64,000 bases of DNA, from contig OZ242195.1 in assembly GCA_965205975.1 (NCBI GenBank), positions 4,544,001 through 4,608,000 of the forward strand. Reading direction: 5' to 3'. The translations under genes were made by a program, and so were the position numbers. Below the pieces are notes generated by a model. It saw nothing but the letters and a program-made list of their open reading frames with translations, was not told where the DNA came from and did no database searches. This document shows, in pieces, positions 9,236-25,502 of this stretch (the stretch's first letter is position 1; each line of letters opens with the position of its first letter). This stretch comes from Candidatus Latescibacterota bacterium (GTDB lineage Bacteria > Latescibacterota > UBA2968).

Positions 9236-10855
9236 TTAGTGCATGTGCCCGTGATCGTGGGCGGGCGCTGCACCTTCGTTTTCTTCTGGCAGATCTGTCA
9301 CCAGAGCTTCGGTTGTCAATAACAGTCCCGCGATGGACGCTGCATTTTCCATCGCAGTGCGCACCACTTTTGTGGGATCAATTACACCGGAATCTACGAG
9401 GTCTTCGTATTGCTCGGTGCGTGCATTAAACCCGTAAGCGCCTTCGCCTTCGTTCACTTTTTGCACGACGAGGCTGCCTTCTATGCCGGCATTATCGGCG
9501 ATTTGACGCAGGGGGGCTTGCAGTGCGCGACGCACGATATCTACGCCTGTGCTCTGGTCGCCATGTACATCCGTTTCGTCTAATGCGCCAAGGCTGCGCA
9601 GGAGGGCGACTCCGCCGCCGGGTACGATGCCTTCTTCAACGGCAGCGCGCACGGAATGGAGTGCGTCTTCGACGCGGGCTTTCTTTTCTTTCATTTCTGT
9701 TTCTGTTGCCGCTCCAACGTTGATGACGGCCACACCTCCGGCCAATTTTGCCAATCGCTCTTCGAGTTTTTCGCGGTCGTAGTCAGAGGTGGTGTCTTCA
9801 ATCTGCCGACGAATCTGACTCGTTCTGCCCTGGATATCGGCTATAGATCCCACGCCTTCTACGATTGTGGTGTTGTCTTTGTCGATCACTACGCGCTTGG
9901 TCTGCCCGAGGTCGCTAATCTCGACGTTTTCGAGCTTTATGCCGAGGTCTTCCGTTATCACGCGCCCACCTGTTAGTACGGCGATGTCACCCAACATTTC
10001 TTTGCGGCGGTCGCCATATCCCGGTGCTTTTACGGCACAGGCAGCGAGGGTGCCGCGCACTTTGTTGACGACAAAAGTGGCGAGAGCTTCACCTTCGACG
10101 TCTTCGGCGATGACCAGAAGCGGCTTGCCTGCACCGGCAACTTTTTCGAGCAGAGGCAATAAGTCGTTCATGTTTGACAACTTCGCCTCGTGAATGAGAA
10201 TCAGCGCGTCTTCCAGTATGGCTTCCATGTTTTCCTGATCGGTCACAAAATAGGGCGATAGATAACCGCGGTCAAACTGCATTCCTTCGACTACATCCAG
10301 TGTTGTCTCGATGCTTTTGGCTTCTTCGACTGTGATTGTGCCGTCTTTGCCAACTTTGTCCATTGCATCGGCTATAATCTCTCCGATGCTGCTGTCACTG
10401 TTGGCGGATATTGTCCCTACTTGTGCAATTGAGTTGCGGTCTTTTACCGGCTGGCTCTGGTCTTCCAATGCTTTGACCACGGATGCAACAGCCGCGTCGA
10501 TACCGCGTTTGAGGTCCATCGGGTTGGCTCCGGCGGTTACATTGCGCAAGCCTTCACGGAAGATCGCTTCGGCGAGTACTGTCGCTGTGGTTGTGCCGTC
10601 GCCTGCAATGTCAGAAGTCTTGGAAGCGACTTCTTTGACCATCTGCACTCCCATGTTTTCGTAAGCGTCTTCGAGTTCGATTTCTTTTGCAACGCTCACG
10701 CCGTCTTTTGTCACGGTGGGAGACCCCCAGGATTTTGCGACAACCACATTTCGTCCAGCAGGTCCCAACGTGGCTTTCACGGCTTTGCTCAGGAGCGTTA
10801 CACCATCGAGAATGCGCTCTCGAGCATCTATTCCATAGGCAATCTGTTTTGCCAT
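9236..10855 (-). CDS. groL: Chaperonin GroEL
   Basis: [49 protein letters not shown]. Confidence 0.99.
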
Positions 10856-10870
10856 AATATCAATCTCCTT

Positions 10871-11158
10871 CTACTGAATAATGCCCAATACGTCATCTTC
10901 GTTTACGATTACGTAATCATCGCCATCAACTTCAATTTCCGTGCCGGAGTATTTGCCAATTAAAATTTTTTCTCCAGATTTTACCGCTGGCGCGATCACG
11001 TCGCCATTCTTATTGCGTTTGCCCGGTCCAACGGCAACGACCTCAGCTTCCTGTGGTGTTTCCACAGCGGTATCGGGGATGATAATGCCCCCCTTCACTT
11101 GCTCATCAGCATCCACCCGTCGCACCAGGATGCGATCGGAAAGCGGACGGACATTCAT
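10871..11158 (-). CDS. groS: Co-chaperonin GroES
   Basis: MNVRPLSDRILV...GGIIIPDTA...VVAVGPG, directly upstream of groEL. Confidence 0.99.
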   Translation of the reverse strand: MNVRPLSDRILVRRVDADEQVKGGIIIPDTAVETPQEAEVVAVGPGKRNKNGDVIAPAVKSGEKILIGKYSGTEIEVDGDDYVIVNEDDVLGIIQ

Positions 11159-11213
11159 GAGAACCCTCCTTGAAAAACAGTTAAACGTAATAAATTTAAT
11201 TGTTTATATGTTG

Positions 11214-11240
11214 TTAGCACTCTGTTATTTTGAGTGCTAA
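11214..11240. promoter_or_regulatory. CIRCE element (HrcA operator)
   Basis: Perfect TTAGCACTC-N9-GAGTGCTAA upstream of groES. Confidence 0.97.
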
Positions 11241-11248
11241 GGCGGGAA

Positions 11249-11277
11249 AATATACAGAAGCACCAATATTTGCGCAA
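11249..11277 (-). promoter_or_regulatory. Sigma70-type promoter of groESL
   Basis: TTGCGC-17-TATATT on the minus strand, just upstream of CIRCE. Confidence 0.6.
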
Positions 11278-11342
11278 GTGTAAAAAGTGGAATCCGCAGA
11301 TGGACGCAGATGAAGAAGAAGGGCTGGGAAATGTGAACGACT

Positions 11343-11359
11343 GTAGGGGCGAGGCATGC
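11343..11359 (+). repeat. Half copy of GTAG-type REP-like repeat
   Basis: GTAGGGGCGAGGCATGC is identical to 63772-63788. Confidence 0.65.
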
Positions 11360-11366
11360 GTCATTG

Positions 11367-11837
11367 CTATATATCAGCCAGCTTTGTTTTTTTCTGAGCC
11401 AGTACTTTTTCCAGATGATCAATTTGCTCTTTGAGCAGTTCAGGGGTTTCTGGCGCGCCCATTTCTTCCGGTGGCGGTGGTATTTCAGCCGGCAAATGCG
11501 CATCTTCCCAATCCCCGTATCCGCCGTCCATCGAGATCACTTTTTCGTATCCCATGGTTTTCAGGGTTTCGCCAGCGAGGAGGGATCGCACGCCGCCTGC
11601 ACAAATCACAATCACTTCACGCGATTTATCGGGCATTGCCAATTCAGCTTTATATTCCAATTCGCCGCGCGGTATGTGTACTGATCCTTTTAAGTGCCCG
11701 CGCTCCCATTCATCCAGTCCTCGCACGTCGAGTAATACGGGATTATTACCCTCGTTCAAATACTCATTTACTTCCTGTACAGTCATTTCTGAAATATTTT
11801 GACGCGCATCATCCAGCAAATTTTCACGCGACTTCAT
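11367..11837 (-). CDS. Rhodanese-like domain protein
   Basis: LLDVRGLDEWERGHLKGSVHIP, active-site loop CAGGVRS, SMDGGYGDW. Confidence 0.92.
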   Translation of the reverse strand: MKSRENLLDDARQNISEMTVQEVNEYLNEGNNPVLLDVRGLDEWERGHLKGSVHIPRGELEYKAELAMPDKSREVIVICAGGVRSLLAGETLKTMGYEKVISMDGGYGDWEDAHLPAEIPPPPEEMGAPETPELLKEQIDHLEKVLAQKKTKLADI

Positions 11838-11858
11838 ACGTTTATCTCCTCATTGATT

Positions 11859-14800
11859 TTAAGCTCTTCCATGGCAATGCTTGTACTTCTTGCCACTGCC
11901 GCACGGACATGGCGCGTTTCGCCCCACCTTTTTTTCAACGCGTACCGGCTGTTTTTTTGGCGCATCGCCTTCTGTAGAATTGGCGGTCAATTCATCGGCG
12001 CCCGGTTCGGGCATGCCAGCAAAGCCCATTCCCGTGGCATCGCGGTGTTCCAATGACAGGCGTGCAGGCTGCTGGGTGCGCGGTTGTGCGGGTGTTTCTT
12101 CAATAGAGATGCGGAATAACAATCGCAATGTTTCTCGGTTGATGTCTTCGAGCAATGCTACAAACATCTCGTAACCTTCGCGCTTGTACTCGATCAATGG
12201 ATTTTTTTGTCCATAACCGCGAAGGCCAATGCCCTCTTTCAGATCGTCCATTTCGCGGAGGTGTTCTTTCCACTTTTCATCAAAGACGCTCAGGTAAATC
12301 ATGCGTTCTATCTGGCGCATACGGTCTTCCCCAATGACCCTTTCGCGGCGATCATAAGCCTCGCGAACCCCGCGCAATACACGATCTCGCAAACCCGCTT
12401 CGCGCAATTGGGGCAGATCTTCATCGGGTATGACAGGTGCTTGCAAAAACACATTGCGCAAATCGTTCATTAATCCATCGAAATTCCAGTCTTCGGGATG
12501 TGCGTCGGGCGGTATATGAATATCCAATAGCGCATCGATGGTTTCGTCGATCATTTCGCTGATCATCGCCGAGATATCTTCTTCTTCCAGCGCGTGTCTG
12601 CGTCTGTCGTAAATCACTTCGCGCTGTTGATTCATTACGTCGTCGTAATCCAGCACCTGTTTTCGAAATTCAAAATTGCGCGCTTCAACCCGTTTTTGCG
12701 CGGTTTCAATGGATTTTGTCACCCAGCTATGTTCGATTACTTCGCCTTCTTCAGCACCCAGACGGTCCATGACACGGGCAATGCGCTCGGATCCAAATAG
12801 ACGCATTAAATCGTCTTCCAGTGAGATGAAAAACCGCGAGCTTCCCGGGTCCCCTTGCCGCCCAGAGCGACCGCGCAATTGCCGGTCGATGCGACGGGAT
12901 TCGTGTCGTTCAGTGCCAATAATAGTCAATCCACACGGGACTTCATCTCGACACCCGTATTCGTCTATGTAAGGACACAGGGGCTGGGTGCTATCGGGAT
13001 TTGCAATCAATGCACACTGGTGCCCTTCGGGCGCTTTTACGATGCCGGGTCCCAGTTTGATATCTGTACCGCGCCCGGCCATATTGGTCGCTATTGTTAC
13101 GGCACCGGGTTGCCCGGCCTGCGCGATGATCTGCGCTTCTTGTACATTTTGTCGGGCATTGAGTACCTGGTGTTTGATTTTTTTGCGTGCGAGCATCCGC
13201 GAAATCAACTCGGAGGTTTCAACGGAAATTGTGCCGACCAGGACTGGCAATTTTTGTTCGTGCAAATGCACGATTTCATCGAGTAGAGCATTGTATTTTT
13301 CGCGTTTTGTGCGGTAGATCCAGTCGTTAGAATCGATGCGGCGCACTGGCTCATGCGTTGGAATCGATACCACATCGAGTTTGTAGATTTGATGAAATTC
13401 TTCGGCTTCTGTTTCGGCTGTGCCCGTCATTCCCGCCAGTCGGTCATAGAGTCTGAAATAATTTTGCAACGTAATGGTTGCCACTGTTTGCGTGTCGCGT
13501 TCGACTTTTACCTTTTCTTTTGCTTCCAATGCCTGGTGCAATCCATCGGCAAAACGGCGTCCGGGCTGTGGCCGTCCCGTAAATTCATCGACGATGACAA
13601 CCTTGCCGTCGTCGATCATGTATTGCACGTCTTTTTCATACAGAGAATAGGCTTGCAACAATTTTCGTACACTGTGGATGGATTCATTTTTTTCTGCGTA
13701 ATCCTGATAGGCAGCTTCTTTTGCCTGGTCTTCTTCTGCATCTGATAGCGATTTATTCTGTTCTATATCCCGAAGCACTTCATCGAGATCTGGCAATACG
13801 AAATCGTCTGGATTGCGGCTGATTTCGTCGCGTCCCTTTTCTGTCAGGTCGATGATGTGACTTTTTTCGTCGATGCTGAAATAGAGGTCTTCGTCCAGTT
13901 CCCCGGTGCGCTTGTCGCGGATATAATCGGATTCAACCCGCTGCACGAGGCGCTTGATGCCCTCTTCTTGGAGTCGCTTCATGAAGCGACTATTTTTGGG
14001 CATTCCGCGCTGGACCTGCAATAACAAGATGCCGGCCTCGTATTCATCGCCGGATTCGAGTTCTTCTTCTGCGTCTTTTAAAATATTGTTTACGACTCGG
14101 GTTTGCGCTCGCACCAATTTTTCGACCAGCGGACGCATTTCTTCATACCGATGAGATGTGGATTCTGCCACTGGTCCCGAAATGATCAACGGTGTGCGCG
14201 CCTCGTCGATCAGGATGCTATCTACCTCGTCAATAATTGCAAAATAGTGCTCGCGCTGTATCAGGTCTTCGGGGCGAATCGCCATGTTATCGTAGAGGTA
14301 ATCAAAACCAAACTGATCTTTTGTGCCGTACACGATATCCATAAGACAGGCGTCTTTGTGATCGCATGGGCGCATGCGATATCCGTCTTTCCCCTCTTCT
14401 TCCATAATAAAACCTTCCACGCCCAACGCTCGGTCCTGAATGACGCCTACGGTGAGGCCCAGGAACAGATACACGGGTCCCAGCCACATGGCGTCGCGCT
14501 TGGCGAGGTAGGAGTTTACGGTGACGAGATGCACGCCGCGCCCGAGCAAGCCATTCAGGTACAAAGCCAGACCCGCAGCCAGCGTTTTGCCTTCGCCTGT
14601 GGCCATTTCGGCGATTTTGCCCTGATGCAATACGGTGGCACCGATTAATTGCACGTCATAGGGTATTTCATGCCACACGATTTGATCGCCAGCGCGATCC
14701 CAGGACTTCTCCCGCTCTTTGAAGCGCCTACACGTTTCCTTAAAGACGGCAAATGCCTCTGGGTGAATTTCATCGAGCACATCGCGCTCAATATCCTTGA

Positions 14801-15077
14801 TTTCGGCCTCGATTTCTGCAATGGCTTCCAATTGTTCGGTGCGGTCTTCGTCTCGTTGCAACGCGGCCAATTCTTCCTTGAATTGAATGAGATGTTTTTG
14901 AGCATCATCAGTCGCTTCGGCAACGCGCGTGCGAAATTCTATTGTTTTGCCTTTTAATTCCTCGTCGGACAAAGAGGCATACTCTTCGTAGAGTTGATTA
15001 ATTTCATCCACAATCGGTTGCATTTTCTTTACATCCCGATCGTGTTTGCTGCCGAAAATTTTTGTCAGGAAATTCAT
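11859..15077 (-). CDS. secA: Protein translocase subunit SecA
   Basis: [53 protein letters not shown] and C-terminal SEC-C motif [17 protein letters not shown]. Start [10 protein letters not shown] at 15077. Confidence 0.99.
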
Positions 15078-15088
15078 TTTACCGCCTT

Positions 15089-15823
15089 TCACATCCCAAG
15101 TTCGATGCGTTCGGCCAAAAAAGGCGGAAGGCCCGCCGATAGAATTTTGGCCTGCGCTGTTGCCACATCGTAAGACACGCGGCGCAATTGGAGGTTCCCT
15201 TTTTCTCGATCCCACACGACAAAAGCCGCTCGCGCATCGCCGTCGCGAGGTTGTCCTACACTGCCGACATTTACGAGATATCGGTCATTGTCGGACAACT
15301 GCACTTCTCCTTCGCGTGTAAGTACCGTTTTTTCAGATGCCGAGCACACAAATGCGCGGTGAGAATGTCCGACAAAACACATCTCGAAATTGGTTTGAGC
15401 GAGTATTGACCAGCCATCTTCGGGGTCGAATAAATAGTGCCACAACTCGGGTTCAATTGGCGAAGCATGGGCATAACAATAAGCAGATTCGTTTTGAAAG
15501 GGTTGGTAAGATCGCAATAGCGAGGCGTTTTCATCACTCAGCATTTGAACAGTCCATTGTATTGCCGCCAGTGCCACGGGGTTAAAAAACCCCGGATCTT
15601 CCAGGCCCACTGCCGCCCAATCGTGATTGCCCGCCAGCACGAGGTCCGATACTTCGCGCACGCGTTCTATGCACATATTGGGGTCTGCGCCGTATCCAAC
15701 CATATCGCCCAAACAAATAATTCGATCTACCTGTGCTTCTGCAATTTTTTCCAGCACTGTTTGCAAGGCTTCGAGATTTCCGTGTACATCTGAGAAAATC
15801 GCGATGCGTCCAATATTATCCAT
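15089..15823 (-). CDS. Metallophosphoesterase (calcineurin-like, YfcE/MJ0912 type)
   Basis: [34 protein letters not shown]. Alternative start at 15838. Confidence 0.92.
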
Positions 15824-16238
15824 TGGGGTGTCCCGCATTCATCTTGGACAGGGTATCGAGAATACCGTTGATAAAGTTAGAAGCATTGGCTTCACTAAAT
15901 TGCTTGGCCAGTTCTATTGCTTCGTCAATAGAGACTTTGTAGGGAATATCTTCGAAATAGCGCATTTCGGCAAGTGCCATCCAGAGGACGATGCGATCTA
16001 TACGCGAAACCCGATCTAATGACCAATTTTCCAGTACGGGTTCAATAGATGCGTCCAGTTCTTCTCGGTGCTCCCAGGCTGTTTGGGCCAGAGTTATCGC
16101 AAAATCCGAGGTTGATGCCGAAAGGCGTGCACGGATGCACATGGTCTGCGCTGTCTGTTGTACTGGGTCGCCAACGCTCACGGTCCAATAAAGTGCTTGC
16201 AACGCAGCCTGACGCGCTTTACGTCTCGATTTTATCAT
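15816..16238 (-). CDS. nusB: Transcription antitermination factor NusB
   Basis: [32 protein letters not shown]. Follows ribH as usual. Confidence 0.97.
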
Positions 16239-16711
16239 TTTTTTGACTCCCAGTCAGCGATAACTCCAATCATTTCAATCGCGCCCAGTGCAGCTTCCCA
16301 ACCCTTATTGCCGGCTTTGGTCCCTGCCCTCTCAATCGCTTGTTCAATGGTATCGGTTGTCAAAATACCAAATATGGTGGGTACACCTGTTTCGCGACCA
16401 ATAGATGCCACGCCTTTTGCGGCTTCGTTGCATACGTAGTCAAAATGCGGTGTGCTGCCTCTGATTATTGCGCCCAGACAGATAAGCGCGTCATATCGAC
16501 CGCTTTGCGCCATTTTTTGTGCCATCGTGGGAATTTCAAAACTTCCCGGCACCCATACCACGTCTATGGCATCTGTATCGCCACCGTGCCGCGCAATACA
16601 ATCGAGCGCGCCACCGAGCAATTCTTTGCTGATAAACGCATTGAATCGCGCCACCACAATGCCAAACTGTTTGCCTTTTGCCAATAGCTGACCTTCATAA
16701 ACTTTGGGCAT
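16235..16711 (-). CDS. ribH: 6,7-dimethyl-8-ribityllumazine synthase
   Basis: [35 protein letters not shown]. Confidence 0.99.
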
Positions 16712-17951
16712 CGCGATCTCCTTCTTCGCCTAATTGCAATTCGTCCTCTTTAAATAAATGTCCCATCTTTTCTTGCTTAGTCCGCATATATGTCAAGTTC
16801 CATTTGTTGACCTGAATGGCGACCGGGACGCGGTCTATAATTTCTATTCCGTATGCTTCCAGGCCCACGCGCTTTGAGGGGTTATTGGTGATGAGTGCAA
16901 CTTTTCTGATTCCCAAATCCGACAAAATTTGTGCGCCAATGCCGTAATCTCGGTCGTCCATCTTAAATCCGAGTTTCAAGTTGGCTTCTACGGTATCATA
17001 TCCCTCTTCTTGCAGTTTGTACGCGTGCAATTTTGCCCGCAGGCCAATACCTCGCCCTTCCTGCCGCATATAAACCAGGGCTCCGCGTCCTTCTTTTTCA
17101 ATCATCTCGAGTGCAGAGTGCAAATTTTTCTCGCAGTCACAGCGCAATGAGCCGAGCGAGTCTCCTGTCAGACATTCGGAGTGCATCCGCACCATTACGG
17201 GTGTATCGCCGGAAAGGTCGCCTTTTACCAGTGCGACGTGTTCGCGTTCATCTACGTCGCTTTCATACAGGTGTAATTGAAATGTGCCAAATCGCGTGGG
17301 CATATCCACTTGCTCGACACAGCGCACCAGTTTTTCGGAACGGCGGCGATAGGCGATCAAATCGTGAATTGTCGTCACTTTCAAGCCAAATTGGTCGGCA
17401 ATTTCCAAAAGCTGTGGCAAACGTGCCATGGTGCCGTCTTCATTCAGTATTTCACACAGTACACCGGCGGGAGACAGGCCGGCCAAACGCGCCAGATCTA
17501 CGGCTGCTTCTGTGTGTCCCGCTCGTCTCAAAACCCCGCCGGGCATTGCGCGCAGTGGAAAAATGTGGCCTGGCCTACCAAAATTCTCAGACCGCGATTT
17601 GGGATCTACAAATTGTCGAATTGTTTCCGCTCGATCCTGTGCGGAAATACCGGTCGTTACACCATAGAGCGCGTCAATACTCACGGTGAAGGGCGTGCCG
17701 TGAAGCGCTGTGTTGGTATTGACCATCATGTCCAGGTCGAGTTCTTTGAGACGGTCGGGCGTTGCGGGCAAGCAGACCAGTCCGCGTCCATGGCGCGCCA
17801 TAAAATTAATGGCTTCAGATGTTACTTTTTCCGCGGCCATAATGAAGTCGCCTTCATTTTCCCGGTCTTCGTCATCAACGACAATGACGATTTTTCCCGC
17901 TCGAATATCTTCGAGGGCTTCTTCTATTGTTGCGATTTTGCCCATATACAC
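16695..17951 (-). CDS. ribBA: Bifunctional DHBP synthase / GTP cyclohydrolase II
   Basis: [47 protein letters not shown]. Confidence 0.98.
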
Positions 17952-17962
17952 CTTCCTGTAAA

Positions 17963-18607
17963 CTATTGGTCGCTCATCATCTCCCGGATGCGATCTTCTG
18001 TGAGCTTATTTTTACCATTTCCAAGTTGCACTAACCGCTCCAGATAACGCGCGATCATATCCACTTCGATATTTACCCGGTCACCCGGATATTTTTCCGA
18101 CAATGTCGTCACTTTTAATGTGTGAGGAATTGCCGTGATCGAAAAGGATCGATCGGTTACTGAAATCACTGTCAGGCTGATTCCGTTGACGGTGACAGAG
18201 CCTTTTTCGGCAATATAAGGAGCCAACTCAGACGGTACTTCAAACTCAAATACAATTTGATCGGGAGATTCCATGCGGTCTGTCACGCGCCCCACGCCAT
18301 CTACGTGTGCGGCAACGAGATGACCGTCGAGGCGGTCGCCGAGTTTTAATGACCGCTCCAGATTGACGCGGTTGCCCACGCGGCAATCACCCAATGTCGT
18401 TTTTTGCAGTGTTTCTGCCACGGACTCGATTACAAATGTGTCGGCATCAAAATATACGACGGTATGACACGCACCTTCGATAGCAATGCTGTCGCCTATT
18501 TTTACGCCGTTGAGCACCTGCTTCGCCGCTATGGTCGTGCGCTGATAACCCGCGCGCGATTCAATATGCCGAATCGTTCCCACTTCTTCTACAATGCCGG
18601 TAAACAT
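17963..18607 (-). CDS. ribE: Riboflavin synthase
   Basis: MFTGIVEE N-terminus, [18 protein letters not shown]. Confidence 0.98.
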
Positions 18608-19305
18608 GGTTGCTCAGATTTTTTTGGCGATTTTTTCACGCGAGCAGTGAACAAAAAATCATTGCCGATGGATTCGACTTTTACGTTTTCAAGTTCAATT
18701 GCATCGGTTATTGAAGTGATGTTTAAGGATCCGATTGCGGGTATTCCAGCTCCCAGTATTTTTGGAGCGACATATGCGGCTATCCGATCCACCAGGCTCA
18801 GGCGCAATGCCGATGCAGCCACGCGACTGCCGCCTTCGATCAGGATGTGTTGCAATCCCATTTGAGCGGCTTTTTGCAAGACTGCCTTCAAATCTATTTG
18901 ACCATTCATTACTGGCAACTGCCAAATTTGTGCGCCTTTTTTTTTTCGGTCTTTTATCCGTTTTTTGCACACCTCTTCAGCGGTTGCTATAATCAGAGGT
19001 GCCCCGCTAAAAATTTTGGCGTTTAATCCGATTTTTAGCTGAGAATCCAGAACGATTTTTGTCGGGCTGCATCCATCGACATACCGCACGGACAATTTTG
19101 GGTCATCAGTCATCACTGTGCCGCGTCCGACCAGAATCGCATCGGCCTCTGCGCGAAGTTGATGCCCGCGCACCCGCGATGTTTTTGATGTGATCCATTT
19201 CGAGTCGCCCGTGCAGGTGGCGATATTGCCGTCCAGTGTTTGCGCCAGCTTTAAGGTGACAAAAGGCAATCCGGTTGATCGATATTTGGTTTCGAATTCA
19301 TTCAT
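18589..19305 (-). CDS. ribD: RibD reductase domain only (5-amino-6-(5-phosphoribosylamino)uracil reductase)
   Basis: PFVTLKLAQTLDG, SKWITS, DAILVGRGTV..DDP.L, ILIEGG. 238 aa with no deaminase HAE/PC motif. Confidence 0.9.
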   Translation of the reverse strand: MNEFETKYRSTGLPFVTLKLAQTLDGNIATCTGDSKWITSKTSRVRGHQLRAEADAILVGRGTVMTDDPKLSVRYVDGCSPTKIVLDSQLKIGLNAKIFSGAPLIIATAEEVCKKRIKDRKKKGAQIWQLPVMNGQIDLKAVLQKAAQMGLQHILIEGGSRVAASALRLSLVDRIAAYVAPKILGAGIPAIGSLNITSITDAIELENVKVESIGNDFLFTARVKKSPKKSEQPCLPAL

Positions 19306-21326
19306 TATTTCACTTCAAAAACGGTTTTTCCAACCCCCACGTTGCCCAGTGCATCTTCCGCTTTCACTACGAGTGTATAAGAGCCAGTTTTCAGATTTTG
19401 AATGGAAAAATTCAGTGTCTCTGTCGGCGAATCAAATATCTGGTCAGTGGGGAAGACTACCTTCCAATCGTCGGAGTTGAGTGAGTACGCTGCCTTGTGA
19501 ATTGCAGTGGCAGCGTCCTGGATTGAACCGGTTACGCTTATGTTTTTGTCGATCTGCCTTATGTCGTGCAACTGCACAGTTGGTGCCGAATTATCAATGT
19601 CAAAGGGCGCACTGATCGCCTCGGCTGTTAATTCGACGGGATTGTCCAATCGGTCTGATGCTACGACCTTAACTTCGACTGTGCCATCGGGAACAGCTTG
19701 GGTGTGCCAAAAATAATGTGAGGCCTTCAAATCGTCTTTTAACAGCCGCCAGTGCGATTCGCCAATACTTCTAAAATACAGGGTATAAATCAAGGTATCG
19801 TCGTTGGCATCACCGGCAGTCCAATCAATTTTCCACACGCCTTTTTCCATAAATTCTGGATTTTCACCTTCGTTGCCAGACAGGTCGGTCTCGGCTTTAA
19901 CCCTTAATATTCTGGGATGAACATTTTCCTGCAAGCCCGCGAGTTTGATAAAACGCACCAGAGGTGTCGCATTTTCTGATTGTGTCTTCAAAACCAACCG
20001 ATATTGCAAAAAGCGCCCAGGGCGACTGGTAATGGGTTTTCCCGATGTGGTGATTGGCTCTGACCACGCACTCCACGTATCATCGGGTTCTTCGCTGTTG
20101 CCGGACCGCGTTTGAACAGCGACTGATGTTTTTGCTGGTGTTTCGCTTTGCCATGATACGCGCCCCCAATGCGATACCCGATCAAAGTCGTAGGGTTCAG
20201 AAGTGAGTTGCCCTTCTCTCGCAAATTCTTTTTCTATTCGATAAATTTCACCGGATCCACTGCATCCAATCCACAGTGCATTTTTGTGCGCGGCAGCCAT
20301 AACATAGGGATTTACATCTTTTAATACTGTGAGCAAAGTGGCGTTGCCATCGGGCCAAACGCGATGTATGCGGCCGTGTTTTCCCGTGACTACTGTTACT
20401 GTTCCATTGGCATTAATTACAGAATCTAACAACATCGGATCATTCGTATTCCACAGTCGCATTGCCAATCCCGAAGGTTGGATCGCATACAGTGTTGCGC
20501 CGGATTGATCTGATCCTTTTTGCTCTCTCCCATTTCCTTCCGTTCGACCGCTTTGCGCCATCGCTGTTGCGTAAATTGTGCCATTGGGCATTACACTCAG
20601 CGAGTGAATCTCTTTTTCACGGGCGTCGTAAAGCACATCTGCACCACCCTGATCGCGCACCTGATAAATCAGGCCGCTGTTGTCTGTGCCCGCATAAATT
20701 TCGCCCTGAGCACCCAACGCGAGCGATACTACATTGGGGTCCTTGCTCGCGTACAGCGCGACGATTTTGCCCTGTTTGTCAATTTTCAAAATGCGTCCGC
20801 GGTCACCACCTGTACCCGCATATAATCCACCGTCTGGATGTGCGACTATTGCAAATACATGGCGATCACCTGTCTGACAAAATTCCGTGGGTTCTCGTCC
20901 TGGTGCGATGCGATAAATCAGCCCGTCTGGCGATGTGCCCGCATAAAGCGCGCCATCTATACCAATGGCGAGGCTAAATATGTGAACTTCAGGGGAATCA
21001 AATAACAATTCTGCCCGATCGCTGTCGGGCTTGAGCATGTAGATTCGACCTTCTTTGCCGGTTCCGATGTACAGGGTTTTGTTTTTATCTACAAATAGTG
21101 CCCATACAAAGTCTTCACCTGTGTCTGCTACCCGTTTATAGGGTGGTGCCAATGTCACTGTGCCTTCCCGCGTGAGCGACACGCCATCGGGTTCTCCTTT
21201 TAGGAAAGCCGTCTGTGAATCTTCTCGCCAAATTTTGGGCGACACTGCGTTTGCGATTGTTCCAAGGAGGACAAAAAGCAGCACATGTGTCATCCCCGAT
21301 CTCAATATTCTATCTTTTTTCTTCAC
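19305..21326 (-). CDS. Secreted beta-propeller protein with C-terminal Ig/FN3-like domains
   Basis: Signal peptide, repeated LYAGT..G.IY blades, TRSGNSEEPDDTWSAWS. GTG start after AGGAG. Coupled to the S55 gene. Confidence 0.75.
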   Translation of the reverse strand: MKKKDRILRSGMTHVLLFVLLGTIANAVSPKIWREDSQTAFLKGEPDGVSLTREGTVTLAPPYKRVADTGEDFVWALFVDKNKTLYIGTGKEGRIYMLKPDSDRAELLFDSPEVHIFSLAIGIDGALYAGTSPDGLIYRIAPGREPTEFCQTGDRHVFAIVAHPDGGLYAGTGGDRGRILKIDKQGKIVALYASKDPNVVSLALGAQGEIYAGTDNSGLIYQVRDQGGADVLYDAREKEIHSLSVMPNGTIYATAMAQSGRTEGNGREQKGSDQSGATLYAIQPSGLAMRLWNTNDPMLLDSVINANGTVTVVTGKHGRIHRVWPDGNATLLTVLKDVNPYVMAAAHKNALWIGCSGSGEIYRIEKEFAREGQLTSEPYDFDRVSHWGRVSWQSETPAKTSVAVQTRSGNSEEPDDTWSAWSEPITTSGKPITSRPGRFLQYRLVLKTQSENATPLVRFIKLAGLQENVHPRILRVKAETDLSGNEGENPEFMEKGVWKIDWTAGDANDDTLIYTLYFRSIGESHWRLLKDDLKASHYFWHTQAVPDGTVEVKVVASDRLDNPVELTAEAISAPFDIDNSAPTVQLHDIRQIDKNISVTGSIQDAATAIHKAAYSLNSDDWKVVFPTDQIFDSPTETLNFSIQNLKTGSYTLVVKAEDALGNVGVGKTVFEVK

Positions 21327-23082
21327 CCGAACCTCTCCTGCCTGAAAAAGTTGCACTACCGTCTTTGCCCACGACCAGAAGCGCCGTTTGACTGCCGGTC
21401 AATACATAGTTAGTCCGTACGTGTTTTTGGCTATATACCGACTGCTGTGATTTTTGCACGACATCTGATCCACGCGCCAGCGATAGTGCTGACAGAACCG
21501 ACGTGGGCAATCCAGAAATTTCGCGTCCGCCCATTGTCACGCCGGGACGGGAAGCTACAAATCGCGCAACGAGTACATCATTGCGTCCCGATTTCTGGAT
21601 CAGACCAATCAGTTCTTCCAGTGTTTTGGGTTGATAAGCGGTGCGCTTTATATCTTGTAATCGCTGTTGTTGCTCATTCACAACCTGCAATATCAAACGC
21701 CCTGGTGTTATAAACTCGGGGATTGGCAGGGCGACATCTACGATTTCTCGCTTGCCCAGCAATGGAGATAGGGCAACAGAGACATGTACTGTATCGCCCG
21801 GTTCGTATTTCAAACGGTCCAATCGCAGCCCCTCAACACGGGCACTTTGGGTGCGTTCCTCAACGGATAATTGAAATACAGCCGAGTCGATATTGGCTTC
21901 GACAAAAGGATTCTGAATCACTTGTGCAAGGGGTTGTGTCAAGCCCAGCACCGCCAGTCCAAGCCCCTGAGCACCTGCGTATTTATTTTTTAGAATCACG
22001 GGTTCACGTTTGGGCATGTGCAATGTCAATTGCCCTGCGACAGTGGTTTCACCCGTCAATTTTTCAGCGGAGATAACGGAGGTTGCTACAGCCATCCGCA
22101 CCAGCAACGGGCCCAATTCTCTGTGGCGAAATACCTCCATATTAAACGAAGCGTCGTGATTGGGAGATACGACAGAGATACGTACAGGCATCATTTCTGC
22201 TTCAGATCCTATCAAGCCAGCAATACCCGGTGCGCGGTCTTGCAAGATCACACCGATATGTTGCGATGCAGTGCCCACCTTAAACGAAAGCATCTGGCTG
22301 GAGATTACTTCGTGAATAAATGCTGCGGTCATAGACATCGCCGTGCGACCACCAAATAACAGGGGATGACCAAACCCCACGACTTTATTACCCACGCGAT
22401 GTGTCAGCGTGCCAATACCCGTGACACTGAGATCGCCCCGAACCAATTGCACGCCCAGAGGTGCGCCCGGTTCAAATGGACCGATAGATAGAGATGGGTC
22501 TGTTCCGCCGCCGCCCTGCATGGGCAACAGGCCGTATTTTGACAGTTCTTCGCGAAATTCCGCGACTACTTGCGGGGCAAATCCCGAAAGCATCAAAGGT
22601 ACAGCCACGGGTTTTAGTACACCGCCGTGTACACCAGCTATTTGTCCATCCCAGGGCGCGGATCCAAATGTCGCGCTCGATGTGGTATCCCGCGATGCGC
22701 GTTGGAGTACCGTCATCATCTCGCCAATTGGCGTGATCCCCGCGATTGGCTCTTCTGCGAATGCACCAATACTATAGCCGACTGCGCCGACGAGTTTGCC
22801 TTCGATATATACCGGGCTGCCACTCATGCCGGCGATGACGCCGGTTTGCGCCATGGGACCGCCGGACAGACGAGCGAGAATCATATCGCTTTTTGGACCA
22901 AAAACATTGCGCAAGACACCTAATACTTCAACGCCAAATGTATCGATGCGGGTGCCTTGAAATACCGTGCGCCCCACGCCTTTCATGCCGCGCTGGATAT
23001 CATCTACAGGCATGTACAATTCAGCACTGGTCGATCCATATAGCATGCAGATCGTAAAAAATGTCAAAAATCGAGAAAGCAT
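21310..23082 (-). CDS. SpoIVB peptidase S55 domain protein
   Basis: Signal peptide, GMKGVGRTVFQG, GVIAGMSGSPVYIEGKLVGAV, GFGHPL. Confidence 0.9.
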   Translation of the reverse strand: MLSRFLTFFTICMLYGSTSAELYMPVDDIQRGMKGVGRTVFQGTRIDTFGVEVLGVLRNVFGPKSDMILARLSGGPMAQTGVIAGMSGSPVYIEGKLVGAVGYSIGAFAEEPIAGITPIGEMMTVLQRASRDTTSSATFGSAPWDGQIAGVHGGVLKPVAVPLMLSGFAPQVVAEFREELSKYGLLPMQGGGGTDPSLSIGPFEPGAPLGVQLVRGDLSVTGIGTLTHRVGNKVVGFGHPLLFGGRTAMSMTAAFIHEVISSQMLSFKVGTASQHIGVILQDRAPGIAGLIGSEAEMMPVRISVVSPNHDASFNMEVFRHRELGPLLVRMAVATSVISAEKLTGETTVAGQLTLHMPKREPVILKNKYAGAQGLGLAVLGLTQPLAQVIQNPFVEANIDSAVFQLSVEERTQSARVEGLRLDRLKYEPGDTVHVSVALSPLLGKREIVDVALPIPEFITPGRLILQVVNEQQQRLQDIKRTAYQPKTLEELIGLIQKSGRNDVLVARFVASRPGVTMGGREISGLPTSVLSALSLARGSDVVQKSQQSVYSQKHVRTNYVLTGSQTALLVVGKDGSATFSGRRGSGEEKR

Positions 23083-23202
23083 GTGTTCACTTCCGCGTAG
23101 AAGGGAGTGAGAGAAAATTTTTGCATTCTGATATTATACCGTTTTTTGGGGCAGTGAACAAGTTTCTTGTAAAACATATCTAATCTGTGTATAATGGCAA
23201 AT

Positions 23203-23673
23203 ATGCAGATCACTTTGCTCACTGTGGGTAAGTTCAAAGACGCCTGTTATCGAGACGCCGCACAAAATTATATCAAGCGGCTGCAACACTACGTCGCTTA
23301 TGATGAGATTGAAGTGCGCGAAGAGCGCGCGGGCAAAAATGTCCGTGTGTCTGATATTATTGAGAAAGAAGGCCATCGCCTTTTAAGTGCGCTGCATCCA
23401 GATGCCACTGTGGTTGCTCTTGGGCCTTCTGGCAAATTGTGTCGTTCTGAAGCCCTGGCCAAACGCTTGAACCTTATGCGTGTACAAAGAAAAAACCGCC
23501 TCGTTTTTCTCATTGGCGGCCCTTTTGGGCTTGCATCTCGGGTTTTGTCGCGTGCAGATTGGCATCTGTCACTTTCACCTATGACTTTCCCACACGAATT
23601 GGCGCGCGTGATTTTGCTGGAGCAACTCTATCGCGCTTTCACGATTATCAGAGGTGAAAATTACCACAAGTGA
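23203..23673 (+). CDS. rlmH: 23S rRNA (pseudouridine1915-N3)-methyltransferase
   Basis: TLLTVGK, FLIGGPFGL, LSLSPMTFPHELARVILLEQLYRA..I..GENYHK. Confidence 0.97.
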   Translation: MQITLLTVGKFKDACYRDAAQNYIKRLQHYVAYDEIEVREERAGKNVRVSDIIEKEGHRLLSALHPDATVVALGPSGKLCRSEALAKRLNLMRVQRKNRLVFLIGGPFGLASRVLSRADWHLSLSPMTFPHELARVILLEQLYRAFTIIRGENYHK

Positions 23674-23679
23674 AAAAGC

Positions 23680-23772
23680 GCGAATAGACGAATAGACGAA
23701 CCCCGCCCGACCTCCCAGAGTTATTACAAACTCCGTCGTTGATTCGTAGATTCGCTGATTCGTAGATTCGCT
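23680..23772. repeat. Two inverted arrays of 8-nt-period CGAAT repeats flanking a ~40-nt core
   Basis: GCGAATAG-ACGAATAG-ACGAA (23680-23700) and TGATTCGT-AGATTCGC-TGATTCGT-AGATTCGC (23740-23771). Confidence 0.7.
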
Positions 23773-24047
23773 AAACAGCCCGGGGGCAAACGACTCACAC
23801 AGCCTGGGAGAGATGATTCTGCGGGAATCCGGCTACGTTGAGTCAACTCGCCCCCGGGTTTTTTAACATGTCAAAACCAAACAAGAGATAAGTCAGTAAT
23901 GGCGAGTTCGCTAATTCAAATGTATAGTAGAGAGAATAGGAACGGGGGAGTTCGACAATTCAGCACTTAGATGACCGAGAAATCCGATGGGGAATCGGTG
24001 TCACCTCTTCGACTCGAGGGGGATTGACGAGTCTTTACCACAAGAAC
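23772..24047 (-). ncRNA. Candidate ~270-nt structured small RNA with UCCCC loops (unknown family)
   Basis: Lies downstream of a consensus-like promoter with no credible ORF. Three hairpins have C-rich loops, and a long 3' hairpin pairs better on the minus strand through G-U wobbles. Confidence 0.5.
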
Positions 24048-24053
24048 GCGCTT

Positions 24054-24082
24054 AAGATAAGCCATTGTTTTTATTAAGTCAA
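24054..24082 (-). promoter_or_regulatory. Sigma70-type promoter pointing into the non-coding region
   Basis: TTGACT-17-TATCTT with an upstream A8 tract (UP-element-like). Confidence 0.65.
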
Positions 24083-24132
24083 GATTACTTTTTTTTATGT
24101 TTGATATGCGCCAGATATTGTGTATCACATCA

Positions 24133-25434
24133 TTATTTACCACAGCCCAATGTGGTTCTATTTCGAAATAATCGCGTGTACGCGGTCGGTTCTTCAAAAA
24201 TCCCTCCGCTTTGATCGTAGTAGTTTTCCTCCAGTACAAATGCACCTCCTCGGGGTCGCAACCACGATGCATTGGGTATGGGATATTCTGAGAGCATGCG
24301 ATTCCAGGTTCCGTAATTTTCCGGACCATTGGATTCCATTAATCCCCCTTTTACTCCCGGAAATGCGGGCAATCGCGTAGCTACGTTTTTGTTCCATTCC
24401 ACCAACACGGGCACACACGCATTATCCGCTACAAAACACGGCACATTAGACAGTGTTGCCGCTTCGATCATGCGAAAAGCCAATGACAGGGTTTTACCCG
24501 CGGGTTTGATCGCCATAGCACCGTATCCCTGCTCCAATCGGGTGTGTACATCAGCAACGGTTTCGATGCTTTCATCCCCTGCAAAACGCGCAGGTAAGCC
24601 GTGTACATCGATATCTGCCGGATGCAAAAAAGGTTCTTCAATCAGGACAATGCGACCCAGAATACCTTCATTGTCCGCATGATCTAATAAGCGCGCCATG
24701 CTGTCTTTTCTGCCATACCGACCATTGGCATCGAGATAATAGAGCACATGGCCCGAATCGGTCATTTCCGTTTCGTATTGAGATGCCAGACTGTGGACCC
24801 GAGATAGGCAGGCCATGTCTTTTTTTACCATTTCAGTTTCATCTCCCGGATGCCCAATTTTGATTTTTAGTATGTACGCCCCGCTATCTAAAATTGCCCG
24901 CAATTCATCTATGGGCAGGGTATAACTCACTGCGGGGACAAGCGCGACATGCGATTGGCGATGAGATAAAAATGAGCGAAATTTTTCCGGAATTAAGGCG
25001 TCGAAGGTCGCCAATTCCTTCTGCTTTGCATACAAGGTCCAGGCGGCGTTGTCCAGTGCTACCAGTGCAATTAGCGCAAATGTTCGGCGCAAATCCCCAT
25101 GGTCTGTAATGGCTTTGGCATAAGAAAAGACATCGTTTTCAACGGTGTCAAATAATGCCATCGGGTCGGCAAATTCTTTTCCCTTGATCTGTTGTAGTGC
25201 AAATTCCAGAAGAGATGCCTGAAGCAAATTGCCGCCCATTTCTGTATGTGCAGCAAATACGGCAGCGTCTGACCACAGTACGGCCAAACCACCTATACCA
25301 AAAGCTTCATGTCCGTCGGCATCTTTTAAACGCACGATGAGATTCCACTTTTCGTGAAAAGCCGATCCCTTAAACGCAAATGGCCGCGCAAATGGTTCGC
25401 GCTGAATTTCTAAATCTGTCTCGACAATGTGCAT
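24133..25434 (-). CDS. Enolase-superfamily enzyme (L-Ala-D/L-Glu epimerase / mandelate racemase-like)
   Basis: ILKIKIG (KxK motif), YLDANG, IEEPF, AGDES, AIKP. Start MHIVETDL after AAAGGA. Confidence 0.8.
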   Translation of the reverse strand: MHIVETDLEIQREPFARPFAFKGSAFHEKWNLIVRLKDADGHEAFGIGGLAVLWSDAAVFAAHTEMGGNLLQASLLEFALQQIKGKEFADPMALFDTVENDVFSYAKAITDHGDLRRTFALIALVALDNAAWTLYAKQKELATFDALIPEKFRSFLSHRQSHVALVPAVSYTLPIDELRAILDSGAYILKIKIGHPGDETEMVKKDMACLSRVHSLASQYETEMTDSGHVLYYLDANGRYGRKDSMARLLDHADNEGILGRIVLIEEPFLHPADIDVHGLPARFAGDESIETVADVHTRLEQGYGAMAIKPAGKTLSLAFRMIEAATLSNVPCFVADNACVPVLVEWNKNVATRLPAFPGVKGGLMESNGPENYGTWNRMLSEYPIPNASWLRPRGGAFVLEENYYDQSGGIFEEPTAYTRLFRNRTTLGCGK

Positions 25435-25453
25435 TTGTTTGTATCCTTTGATA

Positions 25454-25481
25454 GGGGGACGGCATAGGGGCCGTCCCCTAC
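25454..25481 (-). repeat. GTAG-type REP-like palindrome
   Basis: Minus strand GTAGGGGACGGCCCCTATGCCGTCCCCC, between divergent genes. Confidence 0.65.
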
Positions 25482-25502
25482 ATGGCATTTTGGATAATAT
25501 AC

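Follow-up and report, generated by a model that had tools for sequence, protein, structure and literature searches.

Comparison with related genomes indicates that the locus downstream of rlmH harbors a real, single-copy, minus-strand RNA gene common to one order of uncultured Latescibacterota. By sequence, the element is a new RNA family outside every Rfam family, although its functional kind, the small RNA (sRNA) with C-rich loops, is already known. Comparison with a second locus shows in addition that the 5' module of the RNA gene has a paralog in the leader of an operon encoding giant secreted proteins. A sequence-only reading had proposed an undescribed minus-strand sRNA with C-rich loops that binds either G-rich RBSs or a C-patch-binding protein. 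Comparison supports this in part, namely the undescribed RNA as a standalone minus-strand gene whose C-rich loops are conserved. Unless a genome contig is named, coordinates refer to the window, i.e., the whole stretch of 64,000 nucleotides that was analyzed (Table 1).

Table 1. Features of the RNA gene and its surroundings, in window coordinates
Feature	Position	Strand	Basis or remark
rlmH (SPOUT methyltransferase; PF02590), convergent neighbor	23194..23673	+	Domain match
Dispersed intergenic repeat, outside the RNA family	23680..23772	none	Multicopy here and in related genomes
Predicted RNA gene, about 270 nt	23775..24047	-	Both ends predicted
Hairpin B, variable tip	23779..23858	-	Covarying terminator-type basal stem
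T6 after hairpin B, plus strand	23859..23864	+	Sequence; likely terminator use for rlmH
Third C-patch near +100, pyrimidine-rich stretch	23940..23953	-	Mostly single-stranded in relatives
Hairpin A, extended helix around the core 23998-23984, with an NCCCC loop near +55	23969..24007	-	Most constant C-loop
Hairpin H1, C-run near +25	24011..24033	-	Stems turn over between genera; lineages without it exist
Sigma70-type promoter TTGACT-17-TATCTT; spacer AAAAAC-NN-TGGC as candidate operator	24054..24082	-	Comparison
Proximal NrdR-box-like site	24109..24122	-	40 bp upstream of the -35 start
Minus-strand ORF upstream of the RNA	stop at 24133	-	Sequence
Distal NrdR-box-like palindrome CAC-N8-GTG	24141..24154	-	32 bp from the proximal box

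The promoter (TTGACT at 24082-24077, a 17-nt spacer, and TATCTT at 24059-24054), the small hairpins (24033-24011; 23998-23984 within the 24007-23969 helix; 23953-23940), and the long hairpin (23858-23779, with a AUCUCUCCC bulge at 23814-23806) all lie on the minus strand where the sequence-only reading had placed them. Within this single genome, the signal for an RNA element is weak: promoter-like sites numbered 4 against 3.3 in shuffled sequences, the folding z score was -2.0 for the minus and -1.9 for the plus strand, and the predicted pairing probabilities of the three small stems were 0.69, 0.39, and 0.38. It is the comparison with relatives that makes the element solid.

A BLAST search of 61 genomes found the region 24140-23773 once in 19 of the 20 relatives from the genus and marked 23680-23772 as a separate dispersed repeat, which sits between rlmH and the RNA gene and is missing at several orthologous loci. 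The same promoter and 3' hairpin were recovered in 17 loci downstream of rlmH among 30 further genomes, 21 of which had an rlmH match. Using a covariance model, we detected the 3' hairpin (hairpin B) in 46 of 48 order relatives (27/29 and 19/19 in the two families of the order) and in none of 102 other Latescibacterota genomes. When 40 genomes were searched less strictly, two more genomes of the order were recovered, and outside it plain terminators only; the 55-nt matches found there were for this reason rejected as homologs. In GTDB, scanning for the exact pattern returned 43 records, labeled Latescibacterota, Gemmatimonadota/Gemmatimonadetes, or unclassified. Metagenomes contributed 16 records, of which 14 include the promoter and the other 2 are truncated, and the viral contigs searched contained no copy. 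Removing duplicates from the 110 loci examined left 48 distinct hairpin-B loci, and because kin among them are not independent, counts based on this set overstate significance.

In relatives, the RNA measures about 223 to 340 nt. The convergent rlmH gene is present at 45/48 loci and a SpoIVB-like gene lies beyond it, on the same strand as the RNA, at 47/48. Since the RNA gene persists without rlmH in 3/48 loci (and in L132) and without the SpoIVB-like gene in 1/48, neither neighbor is required. In the window, positions 9239-23082 of the minus strand are occupied by a long co-oriented gene cluster, which from its sequence we take to comprise genes for a SpoIVB-like peptidase, a beta-propeller protein, a phosphoesterase, and a rhodanese, together with rib genes, nusB, secA, and groEL.

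When the spacer was required within 3 mismatches, the promoter was found at all 48 loci, 182 to 312 nt upstream of the hairpin B core. The spacer motif is near-invariant across loci and unfavored among 255 other promoter-like sites. Of 52 order relatives, 51 carried the promoter pattern (one solely at the second locus), as against 0 of 115 genomes outside the order, and the reversed control gave 0 matches. The promoter matches a pattern of this lineage found before tRNA, tmRNA, and rRNA genes, and at 46/48 loci a purine stands at the predicted +1, position 24047 (G in 44, A in 2).

Further upstream, we noticed sites resembling the NrdR-box consensus in a form loosened after the loci had been inspected. 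A CAC-N8-GTG palindrome occurs about 31, 41, or 51 bp before the -35 element in 38/48 loci, compared to 15/277 other intergenic promoter-like sites of this genome, and such boxes are found in 8 of 11 genera by our own grouping, often with a weaker partner 31 to 32 bp further upstream. The genome studied here has an nrdR gene, and its paired boxes are likewise 31 to 32 bp apart, the second one being weak; the distal box extends into the final codons of the ORF that lies upstream. Similar boxes are present in the promoters of the ribonucleotide reductase (RNR) gene and nrdR of this genome. On its contig C1, box-like sites were seen at 4180046/4180075, 105875/105918, 1844262, and 4245729, before dnaA, smc, nrdR, and the RNR gene, respectively, dnaA and smc being presumed from sequence. 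The spacing agrees with that of tandem NrdR boxes (PMC2892513). Position and target are unlike those of the NrdR regulon: the boxes end 17 to 38 bp upstream of the -35 element, with no overlap with core promoter elements, and lie before a gene other than RNR, whereas according to bioRxiv 2025.03.28.645925 an overlap with the core promoter is the normal arrangement of NrdR boxes, and RNR operons were the only ones found to be both box-paired and NrdR-responsive in E. coli and P. aeruginosa. We regard a possible NrdR control of the RNA gene as a lead, not a result.

Hairpin B showed pairing in 95.7% of cells and compensatory changes in 8 of 21 pairs, compared to at most 57% pairing in slid controls, the structure having been derived from the same sequences. 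Because G-U outnumber A-C cells by 67:0 among 384 core cells, the minus strand is fixed. A plus-strand sponge with GGA loops (CsrB/Rsm) was rejected in view of this bias and of the lack of a CsrA match. The upper helices of hairpin B (AGCC/GGCU and GAUUC/GAAUC) are invariant and are accompanied by a 9-nt RWCUCUCCM bulge (23814-23806). Since these parts barely vary, they provide no covariation proof; their near-invariance, including that of the RWCUCUCC bulge, points to sequence-specific recognition. By itself, the basal stem is much like the plain terminators found in the phylum and, judged by its sequence, looks like a bidirectional terminator; an A-tract precedes the stem in 25/48 loci and a U-tract follows it in 37/48, the latter being weak in this genome. 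At 23833-23800 (minus strand), the invariant helix repeats 5 to 6 bp of the 3'-terminal helix of this genome's 16S rRNA and adjoins an anti-SD-like bulge, but in a different order, and the likeness is probably due to chance.

The three C-loops of the sequence-only reading stood in part. C-runs near +25, +55, and +100 are kept (156 against 83 expected in the 48 loci), as are C4-loop hairpins (66 against 12.8 expected, in 44/48 loci), whereas the proposed GAAC/GUUC stem is present in 6 of 20 genus loci and the first hairpin is absent from some lineages. The stem of hairpin A also turns over between genera, and the most invariant part of the RNA is the upper 3' hairpin, not the three C-loops. A small ORF within the element was considered and rejected, as the frames differ, 5/48 loci have unrelated SD-led ORFs, and none is conserved. 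At the sequence level, the element thus has its own promoter, a 3' terminator, no conserved ORF, and conserved unpaired C-rich loops on covarying stems, as do members of the C-rich-loop sRNA class.

Scanning window positions 22500-25500 and 19 loci with the Rfam 15 covariance models (6C, cuckoo, RsaE, sX13, and riboswitches included) gave no match on the element, in keeping with its having been called undescribed, and tRNA models gave none at the locus. There is likewise no SRP, RNase P, or tmRNA here, as had been noted, and genuine genes for these RNAs were found elsewhere in the genome. An origin of replication was also rejected, the skew minimum and a DnaA-box cluster lying near 4.1 to 4.18 Mb and not at 4.57 Mb. 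We found no published description of such an RNA from Latescibacterota in a literature search that covered article texts, mostly from non-subscription sources.

Known RNAs offer several parallels. RoxS/RsaE, LhrC, and cuckoo/CcsR carry C- or CU-rich anti-RBS motifs in several copies; the element had no covariance-model match to them at E values up to 10, and they come from other phyla and have another architecture. 6C and B11 of Actinobacteria (PMC6486639; bioRxiv 2022.10.27.514065) share with our RNA lineage-wide occurrence, C-rich-loop stem-loops, and the absence of Hfq. Unlike them, the Latescibacterota RNA is longer and has loops with 4 to 5 C residues, an additional long 3' hairpin with an invariant bulge, and a paralogous mRNA leader, and the replication gene concerned is dnaB there, whereas here dnaN is a candidate only. 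The Xanthomonas sRNA sX13 (PMC3771888), also Hfq-independent, has the same 4C/5C apical loops, including UCCCC, yet it is a 115-nt RNA of three stable stem-loops, while ours is longer, has a mostly unpaired third patch, and shows no sequence match to it. Finally, EutX/Rli55 (PMC5821096) is a standalone RNA that carries the dual-hairpin signal of an operon leader; our case is unlike it in the absence of a riboswitch match, in its C-rich loops, and in that the second locus is missing from this genome, so that the same hairpin motif occurs in an mRNA leader in relatives but not here.

This second locus was recognized by an exact-type promoter in 7 genomes, to which a looser search added 3, giving 10 relatives (L155, L157, L158, and L178 to L184); nine other loose matches that were fetched led nowhere. 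Each of the 10 loci has a divergent promoter pair, with the promoter in question facing away from a TLC-family transporter gene and toward a leader of roughly 150 to 270 nt. Wherever enough DNA could be read, this leader is followed by an operon of at least 10 kb for secreted CARDB- and NHL-repeat proteins. The leaders contain 10 C4-loop hairpins, near +28 and +58, against 1.7 expected; these occur in 8/10 loci, and some are near-identical to those of the free RNA. The promoter spacer is kept even where the -35 element has decayed. In L179, the loop at +65 reads AACUCUCC, a variant of the hairpin B bulge, while the hairpin B motif itself was not found at the second locus and Rfam returned nothing relevant for the 10 regions. 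Several of these leaders can be folded into an outer stem with two C-loop arms followed by a pyrimidine tract. At L194:5115-6188, a transposase-like ORF interrupts the NHL-repeat gene of the second locus of genome G052.

We tentatively favor, at something short of even confidence, an Hfq-free, chromosomal, trans-acting anti-RBS sRNA of the 6C/sX13 kind. The sigma70-type promoter would drive an RNA of about 270 nt that ends at hairpin B, with probable tuning by a spacer-binding factor and the NrdR-like boxes. Covarying stems, as the comparison shows, display unpaired CCCC loops and the CUCUCC bulge. By analogy with 6C/B11 and sX13, these would most likely repress translation through Hfq-independent pairing with G-rich RBSs (GGGAG, GGGG, GGAGAG), and the second-locus leader may release a sibling RNA. 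RBS pairing is favored because the characterized C-rich-loop RNAs act in this way without Hfq: 6C represses dnaB via its C-loops (PMC6486639), and sX13 (PMC3771888) and B11 (bioRxiv 2022.10.27.514065) are further precedents.

Neither Hfq nor CsrA had a match in this 98% complete genome, in which SD use is strong and GGGG and GGAGAG peak at -15 to -6. In an RBS duplex scan of four seeds against 4558 start regions, no seed beat its six shuffles. Two duplex matches, dnaN and purM, were pursued for their nucleotide link. Of 19 order genomes, 18 have GGG in the dnaN RBS, compared to none of 8 genomes outside the order, although dnaN was chosen post hoc from 32 listed matches and ranks first among 8 genes only. 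For comparison, GGG occurs in seven control genes at 3/21 to 13/21, and the background of this genome is 453/2742 (16.5%). Three of the 11 rows of the RBS table were dropped for wrong reference starts, presumably internal rpsC-like and rplX-like starts and an upstream rpsH-like one. The details of the pairing between dnaN and the hairpin B bulge vary (-5.5 to -19.2 kcal/mol), and we consider dnaN a weak candidate target; purM, with GGG in 6/19, was rejected. A search for a G-rich partner RNA gave 6 matches, mostly tRNA or tmRNA genes, none of them convincing. At the minus-strand gene start at 1933405 of contig C1, a GGGGA-loop hairpin directly precedes the start codon; it is the best duplex partner of hairpin A, at -23.8 kcal/mol, a value not above shuffles. 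As for transcript data, 18 RNA runs contain a fraction of 0.09 to 0.23 of the words searched for, and in 4 of these runs, all consisting of contigs, the best contig spans both flanks at equal depth, with no pile-up of ends, which speaks neither for nor against a transcript.

The leader paralogy keeps two other explanations alive: for loops that recur in an mRNA leader, spaced from the start site much as in the free RNA, a signal acting in cis or read by a protein is an equally good account or a better one. According to the first, which we judge rather unlikely, the RNA is a leader-derived decoy following EutX/Rli55 or CsrB logic and titrates a putative protein that reads the NCCCC loops of the CARDB/NHL leader. 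The shared spacer and C-loop hairpins in 10 genomes, the survival of the spacer beside decayed -35 elements, the bulge variant in L179, and the EutX/Rli55 precedent (PMC5821096) speak for it. Against it, this genome retains the RNA although neither the CARDB gene nor the divergent transporter has a match in it, C4-loop hairpins in its 5' UTRs are not biased toward one strand (16 versus 15), a C4-loop regulon is not seen (21 versus 25), and no candidate reader protein was found.

Still less probable is a cis-acting leader or attenuator, in which the promoter-proximal hairpins and the C-rich tract would serve as loading sites for Rho or for an antitermination activity, with hairpin B controlling read-through. 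Loop positions fixed relative to the start site, a C-rich and G-poor tract, a second copy leading an operon of at least 10 kb, and the downstream SpoIVB-like gene on the same strand at 47/48 loci would all suit such a device. The read-through, doubtful to the same degree, would run antisense to rlmH into the SpoIVB-like, rib, nusB, and secA cluster; however, by eye the SpoIVB-like gene has a promoter-like site of its own, antisense rlmH lies in between at most loci, there is a single NusG match only, and a terminator needs no invariant upper helix of the kind seen in hairpin B.

An RNA that binds RNA polymerase in place of 6S, as Ms1 does, is very improbable. The RNA gene is universal and single copy, the zapA-rny gap is too short for 6S, and 6S (RF00013) had no match in this genome or in any of the 48 order relatives, no 6S was seen at either zapA, and a two-sequence HMM found nothing. 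However, the absence is uninformative, since the Rfam 6S model is insensitive here, matching 2 of 151 genomes of the phylum, both under the cut-off; furthermore, the hairpin B bulge is one-sided, unlike the two-sided central bubble of the 6S rod of about 180 nt, and the element does not resemble the two 6S-like RNAs seen in the phylum. These two (L128:1501-1680 and L129:1501-1676) look clear and come from other families, and none was detected in the 149 other genomes. That the locus is a promoter plus a bidirectional terminator with no functional RNA, as the terminator-like basal stem and the weak single-genome folding signal might suggest, is scarcely credible given the invariant upper hairpin, the one-sided G-U bias, the covarying C-loop stems, and the persistence of the element without rlmH.

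These data add to the Latescibacterota an order-defining, precisely bounded family of non-coding RNA, together with a model of its structure. Because promoter and leader are shared, one can see directly how a single module can give rise to both an sRNA and an mRNA leader. The two loci also make it readily testable, in a lineage with no detectable Hfq or CsrA, whether mRNAs or a protein read C-rich loops. It is conceivable, if unlikely, that a duplicated promoter-leader became a free RNA linking nucleotide status, via the NrdR-like boxes, to a factor that reads the C-loops; if true, operons for giant surface proteins would be under a novel kind of RNA-protein control, and the separate invariant 3' domain of the RNA may also dampen dnaN translation. 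More speculatively, an NrdR-controlled RNA acting on dnaN would represent a new link between dNTP supply and replication.
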